From Escherichia coli (lineage in GTDB: Bacteria; Pseudomonadota; Gammaproteobacteria; Enterobacterales; Enterobacteriaceae), in assembly GCF_003334815.1 (NCBI RefSeq), contig NZ_QOWO01000016.1: 64,000 bases of DNA. The stretch is one strand, 5' to 3'. A model generated the notes under the pieces. It was not told the origin of the DNA. It worked only from the letters and a program-made list of their open reading frames with translations, and did no database searches. The position numbers and the translations under genes are program-made. Below, piece after piece: positions 17,937-23,935 of the stretch. Positions within the stretch are counted from its first letter, which is position 1. Each line of letters opens with the position of its first letter.

Positions 17937-18491
17937 ATGCTTATTGGCTATGTACGTGTGTCAACAAATGACCAGAACACAGATCTACAACGTAATGCGC
18001 TGAACTGTGCAGGATGCGAGCTGATTTTTGAAGACAAGATAAGCGGTACAAAGTCCGAAAGGCCGGGACTGAAAAAACTGCTCAGGACATTATCGGCAGG
18101 TGACACTCTGGTTGTCTGGAAGCTGGATCGGCTGGGGCGTAGTATGCGGCATCTGGTCATTCTGGTTGAGGAGTTGCGCGAACGTGGCGTTAATTTTCGC
18201 AGCCTGACGGATGCTATTGATACCAGCACACCGATGGGGCGTTTTTTCTTTCATGTGATGGGTGCCCTGGCTGAAATGGAACGAGAACTGATTGTTGAAC
18301 GAACAAAAGCTGGACTGGAAGCTGCTCGCGCACAGGGACGAATTGGGGGACGTCGTCCCAAACTTACACCAGAACAATGGGCGCAGGCCGGGCGATTAAT
18401 TGCATCAGGCGTTCCTCGCCAGAAGGTGGCGATCATCTATGATGTTGGTGTATCGACACTGTATAAGAAGTTTCCGGTCGGAGATAAATGA
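17937..18491 (+). CDS. DNA invertase, serine recombinase of Gin/Pin/Hin family
   Basis: 184 aa starting MLIGYVRVSTNDQ (catalytic Ser motif); GGGAG RBS; C-terminal HTH; adjacent to invertible segment. Confidence 0.9.
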   Translation: MLIGYVRVSTNDQNTDLQRNALNCAGCELIFEDKISGTKSERPGLKKLLRTLSAGDTLVVWKLDRLGRSMRHLVILVEELRERGVNFRSLTDAIDTSTPMGRFFFHVMGALAEMERELIVERTKAGLEAARAQGRIGGRRPKLTPEQWAQAGRLIASGVPRQKVAIIYDVGVSTLYKKFPVGDK

Positions 18492-18849: not shown

Positions 18850-19104
18850 ATGGGTAAGATTATTCGGTGGATGCTTTTTTTTGTCGGATTATTTTCCGTT
18901 GCATATTCAATATATAAATATCAACAATCTCCGCAGAGTTTATTTTACATAATCGGTGCTATAGGAACACTTTTATCTGCTACATGTGGTTTACTTGAGA
19001 TAAAAAGCAAGAAATCGAATGGCAGTATAACTGCTGGCGACAACTCAAATATCGTTGTCATTAATGGTTCAGAAAACACATCAAAAATAAAAAATAGAGG
19101 GTGA
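18850..19104 (+). CDS. small two-helix membrane protein (84 aa), unknown family - cassette 1 gene A
   Basis: ATG with AGAGG RBS ~7 nt upstream; two hydrophobic helices (res ~5-22, ~31-50) then polar tail containing GDNSNIVVINGSENT; hand-counted GC ~30-35%. Confidence 0.6.
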   Translation: MGKIIRWMLFFVGLFSVAYSIYKYQQSPQSLFYIIGAIGTLLSATCGLLEIKSKKSNGSITAGDNSNIVVINGSENTSKIKNRG

Positions 19105-19106
19105 TT

Positions 19107-20042
19107 ATGTTTGATAAAGAGGTTAACTTAGGAGACAACTCAAACGTAGTAAAAACAGAAGGGAATAACAACACAACAATAATAAATAATTTTGATGAGA
19201 AGTTTATAGGTCACGTTGTAAGATCCATGCTTTATGAAAGTATGCCTTCCTTTCAAGAAGAAGCTAGAAAAAAGATAATTGCGTCAACTGATGAATACAT
19301 TAGAGAGCTAATATCTGAGTTAGTAATTCAAAAAACAGATGCAGATACATTAAACCAAAAACTATCAACGCCTGACGTTCAATACTCTCTTTTTGAATCA
19401 GCTAAATGTTTTGCAAAAAATCCAGAAAGAACAGCAAAATCAACTCTGTTAAATTTAGTTGTAAAAAAAATAAATGAATTGGATGGAGATCATGAAGAGC
19501 TTTCCTCTATCGATCTGGCAATAAACGTCGCTACAAAACTTAGCGTAAAGCAAATAAGGTATATATCTTTAATATACTATATTAAAGATATTGTAAAAAT
19601 ATCACAAGATAGTGCCGGCGCTTATTGCATAATAGATCCTTCAAAAGATACAACAGAAGAAGTTGACGATTTCTTTTTATTCCCAAATGATATAAAAAGG
19701 AACAAGCAGGATGTTTATGATCTTTATATCGATCTATATAACAATCAAATGGATGTTGTATTTAAAGATGAAGAGATTGGCCCAGTTGATTATAGTATGC
19801 TTATAGCATTGGGTTGTATCATTCAACCTGCATTCCCTCAGCGAACATTTGTACAAAATGTAAAGAAAAGAACAGGATTAGATTTAAACGACAGCGAACA
19901 AAAATTAAAGCTATCGACATTCATTGAGAAAATAGAAAAAGCTATAGAGATAGATTCTGTCGATTATATAGTATTAACTACGGTTGGTAGACAAATAGCT
20001 AACGCCTATATATCAACAAGAATGAGATTAGTTAACTTATAA
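19107..20042 (+). CDS. 312-aa soluble protein of unknown family - cassette 1 gene B
   Basis: ATG at 19107 with AGAGGG 6 nt upstream, 2 nt after gene A stop (ORF track start 19101 is an upstream GTG); N-terminus contains GDNSNVVKTEGNNNT; hand-counted GC ~27%; followed by hairpin terminator. Confidence 0.65.
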   Translation: MFDKEVNLGDNSNVVKTEGNNNTTIINNFDEKFIGHVVRSMLYESMPSFQEEARKKIIASTDEYIRELISELVIQKTDADTLNQKLSTPDVQYSLFESAKCFAKNPERTAKSTLLNLVVKKINELDGDHEELSSIDLAINVATKLSVKQIRYISLIYYIKDIVKISQDSAGAYCIIDPSKDTTEEVDDFFLFPNDIKRNKQDVYDLYIDLYNNQMDVVFKDEEIGPVDYSMLIALGCIIQPAFPQRTFVQNVKKRTGLDLNDSEQKLKLSTFIEKIEKAIEIDSVDYIVLTTVGRQIANAYISTRMRLVNL

Positions 20043-20063
20043 ATATCTCATATTTCTTCATCC

Positions 20064-20099
20064 AAGGTGGTGGCTTCATCATCCACCGCCTTCTTTTCT
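20064..20099 (+). terminator. rho-independent terminator of cassette 1
   Basis: AAGGTGGTGG-CTTCATCAT-CCACCGCCTT hairpin followed by CTTTTCT. Confidence 0.55.
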
Positions 20100-20103
20100 G
20101 CTC

Positions 20104-20240
20104 TTAAGAGTAGTGAACAAACCACTCGTCAGCAAACTCCCAAGTATCTTTCAGAGTCTCCTGAACAAAAGCCTTAGCAGAATCCTTATCTGCGGTGTAC
20201 GTAACAGGAAAATCATCGCTATGGTAGCTTTGACGCTCAC
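20104..20240 (-). pseudogene. truncated dinI-like remnant (3' portion only)
   Basis: nucleotide similarity to the 3' end of the intact dinI-like gene at 21881..22129 (GTGAACAAACCACTCGTCAGCA.ACTCCCA.GTATCTTTCAGAG...); no N-terminal part or start codon. Confidence 0.6.
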
Positions 20241-20366
20241 CCCCATACCATAAAATATCAAGAGATTACGACTCATTTCCCCATGACTCTTCACCAACCA
20301 ACAGTTCTATCAACATAAGATGTAAACTCATAAACTAAGCAAGATAAAAAAATTAACAGAATTTTG

Positions 20367-20395
20367 TTGATTTCATGTCTGTGGAGTGTTAACTT
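20367..20395 (+). promoter_or_regulatory. candidate sigma70 promoter for the XRE/ImmA operon
   Basis: TTGATT-17 nt-TAACTT about 50 nt upstream of the XRE start. Confidence 0.3.
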
Positions 20396-20445
20396 AAAAT
20401 GAGACCTGAAGTACTGAAGGTCTTTGACACACTGGAGAAGCAACT

Positions 20446-20805
20446 ATGTTAACGCCGTTTGGTAAGACAGTAAGAAAAATGCGCATAGACTTGGGGCTTA
20501 CGCTTAAAAGCATGGCTGAGGCTATGGGCATGACCTCGTCTTATCTTTCAGCGATCGAAACTGGTAAAAGGGCGGTCACTAAGCCCGTGCTTGATAGCAT
20601 CATTAGCTATTTTAATGCGGATGAAAAACAAAAAGAAAAGCTTATCAGTGCAGCTCGTGACTCTCAGCAGTCAGTAGAGATCAGCTTGTCAGGTAAGAAT
20701 GGCCACGCTCGTGAAGTCGCAATTGCGTTCGCTCGTAGTTTTGATGAATTAAATGAAGAAGACTTCCGTAATTTACGACAGATTTTGAATCGAAAACAGC
20801 AGTAG
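20446..20805 (+). CDS. XRE-family helix-turn-helix transcriptional regulator
   Basis: 119 aa; N-terminal HTH region (LGLTLKSMAEAMGMTSSYLSAIETGKR) typical of XRE/Cro-C1 repressors. Confidence 0.8.
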   Translation: MLTPFGKTVRKMRIDLGLTLKSMAEAMGMTSSYLSAIETGKRAVTKPVLDSIISYFNADEKQKEKLISAARDSQQSVEISLSGKNGHAREVAIAFARSFDELNEEDFRNLRQILNRKQQ

Positions 20806-20813
20806 GAGGCGGC

Positions 20814-21335
20814 TTGAGCGGACAAGATTATCGTGTACCTCCGCAGAATCGTGAATCAATACGTTCTATCGTCACATCTCTGCGGAGCGCATTTGGTATT
20901 ACTGGGCTTAAATTCCCTGTAATGGAGGTAATTGAGTTCGCATTGCCTCAGTTGATCCCGGATTTTGAGTTCCACATTGGTGGCATGAAAGAAATGGGAG
21001 AAACGCATGGTCTTACGTACCCACAGGAACATTTATTGATTCTGCGCGAAGACATTTACGAAGGCGCTTTGAATGGGGTAGGGCGAGATAGGATGACTGC
21101 CGCGCATGAATTGGGTCATCTTCTTATGCACAGGAACATCGCATTTGCTCGTTCTGCCCCAGGGGTAAAAATCCGCCCTTTTGAGAGTAGTGAATGGCAA
21201 GCTAAATGTTTTAGTGGTGAGTTATTAGTGCCGGCTATGCATGTCAGTATTTTAAAAGGTATGACGGCTGAGGATGTTGCTAAGGCATGCGGAGTTTCAT
21301 TAGTGGCAGCGCGTTATCAGCTAGACAGAATGTAA
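20814..21335 (+). CDS. ImmA/IrrE-family zinc metallopeptidase
   Basis: 173 aa; TTG start 4 nt after TAGGAGG; HEXXH motif (AAHELGHLLMH); immediately downstream of XRE gene, the classic HTH-peptidase pair. Confidence 0.8.
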   Translation: MSGQDYRVPPQNRESIRSIVTSLRSAFGITGLKFPVMEVIEFALPQLIPDFEFHIGGMKEMGETHGLTYPQEHLLILREDIYEGALNGVGRDRMTAAHELGHLLMHRNIAFARSAPGVKIRPFESSEWQAKCFSGELLVPAMHVSILKGMTAEDVAKACGVSLVAARYQLDRM

Positions 21336-21880: not shown

Positions 21881-22129
21881 TTAGTGAACAAACCACTCGT
21901 CAGCAGACTCCCAGGTATCTTTCAGAGTTTCCTGAACAAAAGTTTTAGCTGAATCTTTATCGGCGGTGCGCGTAACAGAAAGGCCATCGTTGCTGGTGGC
22001 TTTTACGATCACCTCTACATCGTCATAACGCTTACTGATGCGTCGAGTTAATTCTTCCTTTAACGCATCCACAGCACCGTTTGGCATTTTAGTCATTTTC
22101 TCTTTAGCTATGCAGATCTCAATACGCAT
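21881..22129 (-). CDS. DinI-family protein (prophage-encoded)
   Basis: 82 aa [11 protein letters not shown]...[11 protein letters not shown], resembles DinI; two LexA boxes in its upstream region. Confidence 0.85.
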
Positions 22130-22144
22130 AAAAATCCCTCTACA

Positions 22145-22160
22145 CTGTGTTTGTATACAG
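22145..22160. promoter_or_regulatory. LexA (SOS) box 1 upstream of dinI-like gene
   Basis: CTGTGTTTGTATACAG fits CTGT-N8-ACAG. Confidence 0.6.
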
Positions 22161-22172
22161 TGTTATTTTTAA

Positions 22173-22188
22173 CTGTATAAATAAACAG
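22173..22188. promoter_or_regulatory. LexA (SOS) box 2 upstream of dinI-like gene
   Basis: CTGTATAAATAAACAG fits CTGT-N8-ACAG. Confidence 0.6.
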
Positions 22189-22213
22189 TGTCAATGGAAC
22201 AAAGATTGCTGCA

Positions 22214-22329
22214 TGTACAAATGTTCTTTGGCTACAAATACACCTACTGATCATGTTCTGCTATGCTCTGATACCTCCAAAATGTACAATCAGCGGCATG
22301 AATTTTTCTTTGTACATATGATTGTACAT
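22214..22329. repeat. cluster of four TGTACA motifs incl. two TTCTTTG-N0-2-TACA(A/T) direct repeats upstream of prfC
   Basis: TGTACA at 22214, 22283, 22311, 22324. Confidence 0.4.
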
Positions 22330-22348
22330 AATTAAAGAGACAACAATT

Positions 22349-23935
22349 ATGACAAGCCTTTTGGCCGCAGAGGTAGCGAAAAGAAGAACCTTTGCAATTA
22401 TTTCTCACCCGGACGCCGGTAAAACTACCATCACCGAGAAGGTGCTGCTGTTCGGACAGGCCATTCAGACCGCCGGTACAGTAAAAGGCCGTGGCTCTAA
22501 CCAGCACGCTAAGTCGGACTGGATGGAGATGGAAAAGCAGCGTGGGATCTCCATTACCACGTCTGTGATGCAGTTTCCGTATCACGACTGCCTGGTTAAC
22601 CTGCTCGACACCCCGGGGCACGAAGACTTCTCGGAAGATACCTATCGTACCCTGACGGCGGTGGACTGCTGCCTGATGGTTATCGACGCTGCAAAAGGTG
22701 TTGAAGATCGTACCCGCAAGCTGATGGAAGTTACCCGTCTGCGCGACACGCCGATCCTCACCTTTATGAACAAACTTGACCGTGATATCCGCGACCCGAT
22801 GGAGCTGCTCGATGAAGTTGAGAACGAGCTGAAAATCGGCTGTGCACCGATCACCTGGCCGATTGGCTGCGGCAAGCTGTTTAAAGGCGTTTACCACCTT
22901 TATAAAGATGAAACCTATCTCTATCAGAGCGGTAAAGGCCACACCATTCAGGAAGTCCGCATTGTTAAAGGGCTGAATAACCCGGATCTCGACGCTGCGG
23001 TTGGTGAAGATCTGGCGCAGCAGCTGCGTGATGAACTGGAGCTGGTGAAAGGCGCGTCTAACGAGTTCGACAAAGAATTGTTCCTTGCGGGCGAAATCAC
23101 TCCGGTATTCTTCGGTACTGCGCTGGGTAACTTCGGCGTTGATCATATGCTGGATGGCCTGGTGGAGTGGGCACCTGCGCCGATGCCGCGTCAGACTGAT
23201 ACCCGTACTGTAGAAGCGAGCGAAGACAAATTTACCGGCTTCGTATTTAAAATTCAGGCCAACATGGACCCGAAACACCGTGACCGCGTGGCGTTTATGC
23301 GCGTGGTATCCGGTAAATATGAAAAAGGCATGAAGCTGCGCCAGGTGCGCACTGCGAAAGATGTGGTGATCTCCGACGCGCTGACCTTTATGGCGGGCGA
23401 CCGTTCGCACGTTGAAGAAGCGTATCCGGGCGATATCCTCGGCCTGCATAACCACGGCACTATTCAGATCGGCGACACCTTTACCCAGGGTGAGATGATG
23501 AAGTTCACTGGTATTCCGAACTTCGCGCCGGAACTGTTCCGTCGTATCCGCCTGAAAGATCCGCTGAAGCAAAAACAGCTGCTCAAAGGGCTGGTACAGC
23601 TTTCCGAAGAGGGCGCGGTGCAGGTGTTCCGTCCGATCTCCAACAACGACCTGATCGTTGGTGCAGTTGGTGTGCTGCAGTTTGATGTGGTGGTATCGCG
23701 CCTGAAGAGCGAATACAACGTTGAAGCAGTGTATGAGTCAGTCAACGTTGCCACTGCCCGCTGGGTAGAATGTGCGGACGCGAAGAAATTCGAAGAGTTC
23801 AAGCGTAAGAACGAAAGCCAACTGGCGCTTGATGGCGGCGATAACCTCGCTTACATCGCTACCAGCATGGTAAACCTGCGCCTGGCGCAGGAACGTTATC
23901 CGGACGTTCAGTTCCACCAGACCCGCGAGCATTAA
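22349..23935 (+). CDS. prfC: peptide chain release factor 3
   Basis: 528 aa from ATG 22349 ([27 protein letters not shown]...); GTPase motifs; ORF track start 22322 is an upstream in-frame ATG. Confidence 0.95.

Follow-up and report, generated by a model that had tools for sequence, protein, structure and literature searches.

TGTACA repeats beside the prfC attachment site of an Escherichia coli prophage are probable arm-type sites for its integrase

Introduction

The attP site of bacteriophage lambda carries the arm-type sites P1, P2 and P'1-P'3, which are read by the N-domain of Int. The structure of the lambda intasome has been described (PMC4880445). In KplE1 (CPS-53), with its proteins IntS and TorI, the arm sites overlap the int promoter and negative autoregulation has been shown experimentally (PMC2951348). 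The IntS attP of ICEMlSymR7A contains five arm motifs, TGKTGGTATC, all of which are required; these motifs have a sharp consensus, and the wHTH excisionase (RDF) of that system binds without one (PMC11963761). The SXT/R391 elements integrate in the 5' end of prfC (PMC4344509 and PMC5812530, citing Hochhut & Waldor 1999 and Burrus & Waldor 2003). We found no description in the searchable literature of the arm sites of SXT/R391 or other prfC-targeting elements, or of TGTACA in connection with integrases.

Here we describe a prophage junction at prfC in a 64-kb stretch of E. coli DNA, referred to below as the window. Four TGTACA hexamers next to this junction lie in the P arm of attR and are, on the evidence of sequence comparison, probably bound by the N-terminal domain of the prophage tyrosine integrase. 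The prophage resembles lambda in its heterobivalent type of tyrosine integrase, in the presence of several short arm repeats on both arms at distances of tens to ∼170 bp from the core, and in the spacing of tandem copies about one helical turn apart; as in lambda, bending proteins would fold the arms. However, the lambda arm motif is asymmetric and is not TGTACA, and the arm-domain Pfam family differs (PF13356 in the prophage integrase). Also unlike lambda, int is transcribed away from attP, and the target is the 5' end of a protein-coding gene that the phage must rebuild. KplE1 likewise has an int gene that reads away from attL and arm-type sites near the int start but targets a tRNA gene and uses another site sequence. 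ICEMlSymR7A shares with the prophage a compact attP, several discrete consensus arm motifs and a separate wHTH RDF but differs in motif, host and target (a tRNA gene).

The SXT/R391 elements have the same target as the prophage, cross over in the same codons and also restore the 5' end of prfC. They carry a TGTACA-N6-TGTACA pair on attR (at −81/−69) and a 12-bp pair on attL. Nevertheless, SXT/R391 elements are conjugative, whereas the element in the window is a lambdoid prophage without setR, setCD, tra, or eex; Set- and Eex-like genes were seen only in marine-type loci. In the prophage, unlike in SXT/R391, int is directed away from the core, four hexamers precede it, and the P arm has two extra distal sites.

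Results

The attachment site in prfC

Comparison of the window with the empty site of K-12, the attP of phage cdtI and the attL of a near-identical lysogen showed that a lambdoid prophage, equipped with genes for tail, capsid, and lysis functions, sits in the 5' end of prfC. Its left end lies outside the window, and the lysogen used for attL has a junction 99.8% identical to that of the window. The order of genes in the window is phage tail genes, the dinI-like gene, the att stretch, and then prfC, osmY, and further genes. The features of the junction are as follows.

21881-22129, minus strand: dinI-like gene, the last phage gene before attR
22195-22396, plus strand: P arm of attR, the phage DNA that separates the core from the shared dinI module; cdtI attP is collinear through to the core
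22349-22396, plus strand: phage-supplied prfC start and first 16 codons, from comparison of the window with K-12 attB, cdtI attP, and attL
22397-22410, plus strand: crossover core ATTATTTCTCACCC, 14 bp, the same in attP and attB, located within the prfC codons for IISHP

Leftward of the core, all of the DNA comes from the phage, the prfC start codon at 22349 included. The N-terminus of release factor 3 in the lysogen differs from that of K-12 (MTLSPYLQEVAKRR) and is one residue shorter. The length of the core agrees with the 14-bp "duplication due to insertion" annotated in Stx-phage records. The dinI module is common to many prophages with other integrases. Similarity to this module ends at 22194 and the core lies at 22397-22410, so that the DNA in between is the att-specific P arm of attR. 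This type of junction was found in 645 of 5,426 complete E. coli genomes (about 12%). No Rfam match was obtained between window positions 18000 and 26000.

A low-GC cargo block occupies positions 18850-21335, between the tail-fibre genes and dinI. It contains an ORF for an 84-amino acid membrane-like protein, a 313-amino acid ORF (19101-20042, 31% GC), and a pair of genes for an XRE-HTH protein and an ImmA/IrrE metallopeptidase (20446-21335). A different set of genes, including one for a BRO-N protein, is present in the near-identical lysogen, which points to a hotspot of variable moron or defence content.

In several genomes, what comes after the P arm and core is not prfC but the int-proximal arm of another element or unrelated DNA, giving attP-like or tandem-array junctions. 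At one Trabulsiella locus they run on into coding-like DNA other than prfC.

Four TGTACA hexamers in the P arm

The original prediction placed four TGTACA hexamers within about 115 bp upstream of the prfC start. This was confirmed: the hexamers lie at 22214-22328 and the prfC ATG is at 22349, with the qualification that this ATG and the next 15 codons are phage DNA. The four sites, together with a repeat discussed below, are as follows.

22213-22221, plus strand: site 1, ATGTACAAA (TGTACA at 22214-22219), 177 bp before TTTGC, in E. coli and cdtI only
22282-22292, plus strand: site 2, ATGTACAATCA (TGTACA at 22283-22288), 108 bp before TTTGC, inverted copy of site 4
22310-22318, plus strand: site 3, TTGTACATA (TGTACA at 22311-22316), first half of the proximal tandem pair
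22322-22330, plus strand: site 4, TTGTACATA (TGTACA at 22323-22328), second member of the proximal tandem pair, with the prfC ATG 20 nt further on
22224-22239, plus strand: TTCTTTG repeat copy 1, TTCTTTGGCTACAAAT

Sites 1-4 lie 177, 108, 80, and 68 bp, respectively, before the TTTGC that precedes the core. Their hexamers, which start at 22214, 22283, 22311, and 22323, account for four of the nine copies of TGTACA in the 64-kb window. The window total (9 observed, 10.4 ± 3.3 expected) is at expectation, and the signal is therefore one of clustering rather than enrichment. Three or more copies of TGTACA occurred in none of 20,000 dinucleotide-preserving shuffles of the 203-bp arm (37% GC); the maximum was two, reached in 40 shuffles.

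Sites 3 and 4 form a perfect 9-nt tandem repeat 12 bp apart. Taken with its flank, site 2 matches site 4 perfectly over 11 nt in inverted orientation, and site 1 matches site 3 in the same way over 9 nt. Since the hexamer at the centre is a palindrome, orientation is given by the flanking bases only. Our first reading of the motif was the oriented 8-mer ATGTACAA, which occurs five times in the window, four of them among the att-arm sites in the order + + − −. This reading was dropped, since the family profile (described below) is a direct pair of TGTACAnA in which orientation is not decidable from sequence alone.

Two longer direct repeats had also been noted in the original prediction. Both are present, at 22224-22239 and at 22306-22320 (TTCTTTGTACATATG), but what they have in common is just TTCTTTG and TACA with a 2-bp offset, which is at chance level; our own reckoning puts the chance expectation at about one repeated 7-mer per 200 bp. 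The copy at 22306-22320 is simply the flank of site 3. The copy at 22224-22239 is invariant in E. coli, does not occur in the Pantoea and Trabulsiella arms, and lies outside the conserved architecture. The core region (TTTGCAATTATTTCTCACCC) contains no TGTACA-like sequence, and the arm motif is distinct from the core-type sites.

Elsewhere in the window, a different repeat, ATCTATTCA, occurs four times within 34640-34737, once at about 34640 and three times in tandem at 34705-34737 with a period of 12-13 bp. The tandem copies stop immediately before an ORF at 34741 (MSELTDLLLQGPRSAPELRQ...) and look like an operator array.

The other prophage end and the integrase

The other prophage end, as seen in the near-identical lysogen and in phage cdtI, has four more copies of TGTACA just upstream of int. 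They are located at +165, +177, +186, and +216 from the core and 9-65 nt before the int ATG, the last of them 9-10 nt before it. The first two are 12 bp apart and form a 23-bp module, CTGTACATATGCTTGTACATAAT, that is near-identical to sites 3 and 4 together (TTGTACATATGATTGTACATAAT). Both the attP of cdtI and the attL/attR of the lysogen thus display four copies on each of the two arms. Of the 15 copies in the ∼50-kb lysogen locus, eight sit in the two att arms, and the native prfC upstream regions of eight hosts contain none, showing that such clustering is not general to AT-rich DNA. TGTACA-family k-mers were the only motif present in multiple copies on both arms.

The 411-amino acid integrase has an Arm-DNA-bind_3 domain (Pfam PF13356; residues 3-90, E = 5e-16) in addition to the central and tyrosine-recombinase catalytic domains. 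An integrase with an N-terminal arm-binding domain is expected to need arm sites. The E. coli prophage also encodes a 64-amino acid HTH_17-like protein similar to a small HTH_17-like protein that is convergent with int in Serratia and SXT/R391. A scan for consensus promoters found none upstream of int.

A second conserved repeat, CCTTTCA (or TTCTTTCA), is limited to the int-proximal arm, where two copies lie after the core and before the TGTACA pair. Its copies are at approximately 47985 and 48060 (minus strand) in the lysogen and at +54 and +118 from the core in three relatives. The repeats were found in E. coli, Salmonella, Pantoea, metagenomic, and SXT/R391 elements, with none in Xenorhabdus or Serratia. 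The CCTTTCA boxes are candidate sites for an excisionase or a bending protein.

Conservation of the motif and its spacing

The P arm is almost invariant within E. coli, and E. coli sequences alone therefore give no footprint. When viral contigs were scanned with the integrase, every relative obtained was at least 96% identical, which was uninformative on conservation. A protein search, by contrast, yielded a graded series of integrases, and the DNA upstream of int was read for five of them, with the following identities to the prophage integrase.

Salmonella: 84% identical
Pantoea: 82% identical
Metagenomic contig: 77% identical
Xenorhabdus: 65% identical
Serratia: 61% identical

All five elements are inserted in prfC. 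They keep three or four copies of TGTACA, with the pair at +164/+176, whereas the sequence between the hexamers has diverged. An Erwinia relative (integrase 54% identical) has one exact TGTACA left plus one GTACA variant.

Species-representative genomes were then scanned for a DNA pattern of two TGTACA, with gaps of 2-30 and 45-75, followed by degenerate prfC codons. At least 120 loci were found. Among the matches listed, which span Gamma-, Beta-, and Alphaproteobacteria, the hexamers are exactly 12 bp apart (TGTACA-N6-TGTACA) in 113 of 121 loci, and the distance from the pair to TTYGC is 79-83 bp (S.D. 0.9) in 84 non-identical elements. The same listed matches comprise 81 distinct upstream flanks and 61 distinct pair sequences, and their family profile is TGTACAnA-N4-TGTACAnA. 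Because the pattern demanded two exact copies of TGTACA, the unbiased results of the scan are the spacing, the distal sites, and the diversity of the flanks. The few matches in which the spacing is different (Agathobaculum, Bacteroidales) seem to be due to chance.

With regard to the distal sites, site 2 is kept with its flanks in Pantoea and Trabulsiella and is found at −109 in Erwinia endophytica. Site 1 has no counterpart in a variant from E. coli JMF1 or in the Pantoea and Trabulsiella arms and is for that reason probably auxiliary. In the JMF1 sequence (2497-2710), a different, frameshifted dinI module is joined at approximately window position 22226; site 1 has been lost and sites 2-4 have been kept.

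SXT/R391 elements and a Klebsiella phage

SXT/R391 elements were the most widespread class among the matches listed from the pattern scan, and seven E. coli genomes contain an element of this type. Just inside SXT/R391 attR are genes for a LexA/cI-type repressor (SetR-like), FlhD- and FlhC-like proteins (SetC- and SetD-like), and an EexR/EexS entry-exclusion protein that scores above the NCBIfam cut-off. The attL of the element in E. coli cq9 has CCTTTCA boxes at +14 and +34 and a TGTACA/AGTACA pair at +144/+156. In the E. coli SXT/R391 element xis is convergent with the gene for a 413-amino acid integrase. This integrase is a full-length homologue of the phage integrase with 38-39% identity overall, and the arm domain is the best-conserved region (57% identical, against 34% for the rest). 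The sequences suggest that the prophage integrase and IntSXT belong to the same family but to different subfamilies. The cq9 element also contains, at 3001-3020, a TGTACA-N7-TGTACA pair ∼210-230 bp upstream of the xis start and well past the attL arm pair, which may be tied to xis regulation.

For Klebsiella phage 5 LV-2017 and Moraxella Mcat10 the comparison covers the int-proximal arm. The Klebsiella phage, whose integrase is 46% identical to that of the prophage, has four copies of ATGGACA/GTCCAT upstream of int in a matching layout, including a 12-bp pair. We count the replacement of TGTACA by ATGGACA in this relative as covariation of motif and integrase. The arm domain of this integrase is 49% identical compared with 44% for the rest, which is almost no extra conservation. 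The stretch concerned, 1-232 of the Klebsiella phage record, opens with codons for FSIIAHID, which we take to be the 5' end of lepA, another translational GTPase gene, and this integrase thus appears to be directed at the equivalent position of a different target. Relatives of the integrase may therefore have been retargeted between paralogous G1-motif codons.

The dinI-like gene and its own palindromes

The original prediction allowed that the hexamers could be operators for the dinI-like gene. Two palindromes of another kind lie closer to that gene.

22144-22163, no strand assigned: 20-nt ACTGT-N10-ACAGT palindrome, LexA-box-like
22172-22191, no strand assigned: 20-nt ACTGT-N10-ACAGT palindrome, LexA-box-like

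The palindromes are 28 bp apart, lie outside the att feature, and overlap a predicted minus-strand promoter-like site for the dinI-like gene (22194-22165). They match the LexA consensus, CTGT-N8-ACAG, to which TGTACA does not conform, and have the appearance of a double LexA operator. The LexA-type boxes belong to a module that is shared with prophages lacking the hexamers, and a role of the hexamers as dinI operators was accordingly not supported.

Discussion

The suggestion that repeated motifs beside an attachment site might be arm-type sites for an integrase or an accessory factor gains support from these comparisons. The hexamer lies in element DNA flanking the core (68-177 bp to its left), is present in multiple copies on both arms, differs from the core sites, and accompanies an integrase with an arm-binding domain. 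The motif is kept with integrases down to 39% identity, and motif and spacing are preserved in more than 100 related elements.

By analogy with the heterobivalent integrases of the lambda type, each integrase protomer would place its N-domain on an arm hexamer and its C-terminal domains on a core half-site. The arms would be folded with DNA-bending proteins into an intasome, in which integration would recombine attP with attB and excision attL with attR. One pair of hexamers on each arm would offer four arm contacts for an integrase tetramer. The remaining copies, namely sites 1 and 2 on the P arm and the additional int-proximal ones, would then be lineage-specific additions, possibly used differently in integration and excision or serving in int autoregulation. 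Autoregulation of int by the int-proximal copies is conceivable because the last of them is only 9-10 nt from the int ATG, and it would parallel the arrangement in KplE1.

Several observations count against assigning the hexamers to the integrase. The hexamer is palindromic, which is unusual for the site of a monomeric domain. Excisionase sites, too, are characterised by tandem repeats with a spacing of about one helical turn (PMC7498355). At least one natural variant does without site 1. Finally, the distance from the pair to the prfC ATG is near-constant as well, and a role in expression is not cleanly separable from the geometry of recombination.

The main rival explanation, which we regard as unlikely, is that the TGTACA repeats, and especially the 12-bp tandem pairs, are sites of an excisionase (RDF) of the HTH_17/AlpA type. 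Such a protein would bend the arms by polymerising on direct repeats with a spacing of one helical turn, and it might also repress adjacent promoters. Typical RDF sites are direct repeats with this period (PMC7498355), a form shared by the proximal pair (sites 3 and 4) and by its counterpart on the int-proximal arm, in each of which the copies are 12 bp apart. A homologous HTH_17-type excisionase accompanies int throughout the family, and the location of pairs upstream of int in the phage type and ∼210-230 bp upstream of xis in SXT/R391 fits a dual regulator. On the other hand, the motif is present on both arms, in both orientations as judged by the flanks, and in eight copies, whereas RDF sites are usually confined to one arm. 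Were the hexamers RDF sites, the integrase arm domain would be left without any two-arm repeat. The two CCTTTCA boxes, which occur on a single arm and on the core side of the distal pair, are better candidates for RDF or bending-protein sites, and wHTH RDFs can bind without a sharp consensus (PMC11963761). The comparison of excisionases could not itself separate the two proteins, since both the integrase and the RDF are conserved across the family.

A secondary effect of the hexamers on prfC expression may exist alongside a role in recombination. The position of the proximal pair just upstream of the element-supplied prfC start is almost invariant in more than 100 elements, SXT/R391 included, which raises the idea that the pair doubles as an operator at which occupancy by the integrase or the excisionase sets the level of host release factor 3 in carriers. 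We consider this dual use rather unlikely.

That the proximal pair is primarily an element for prfC expression, either part of a promoter or an operator for a regulator of the host or of the element, and is fixed to the prfC start rather than to the core, seems very improbable. A gap of 20 nt separates site 4 from the prfC ATG, the distance from the pair to the ATG is 34-40 nt in most elements, and the phage must supply the expression signals of prfC because dinI is divergent. However, the same pair module is found before int on the other arm, ∼165 bp from the core and far from prfC, and a 12-bp period cannot represent a −35/−10 pair. In the interval from the divergent dinI to prfC, the consensus promoter scan predicted no sigma-70-like plus-strand promoter. 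The co-oriented upstream gene setR could drive prfC in SXT/R391. The distance from the pair to the core does not change between N-terminal coding lengths of 42 and 45 nt, an observation that discriminates weakly in that most elements have the same length.

We give next to no credence to the hexamers being an SOS/LexA-type dinI operator or a chance cluster in AT-rich intergenic DNA, in spite of the nearby dinI gene and a GC content of 37%, since dinI has its own CTGT-N8-ACAG palindromes at 22144-22191, outside the hexamer stretch, in a module that ends at 22194 and recurs in prophages without that stretch, and since shuffled sequences never reached three copies of a motif that is kept in more than 100 unrelated flanks.

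With arm-type integrase sites as the probable reading, the kind of attachment site described here is a textbook one, and what is new is a testable map for the whole family of prfC-targeting integrases. The map comprises a tandem pair of TGTACAWA 12 bp apart and ∼80 bp from the core, a matching pair at 134-176 bp on the other arm, and CCTTTCA boxes in between. This family includes Stx- and Cdt-converting prophages as well as the SXT/R391 elements, which spread antibiotic resistance in Vibrio, Proteus, and Providencia. The map points to the bases that could be mutated for studying or blocking integration and excision. It also prompts the question of an influence of the recombination proteins on how the rebuilt prfC gene is expressed; if the proximal pair did act as an operator, a translation-termination factor would be coupled to the recombination state of a mobile element.
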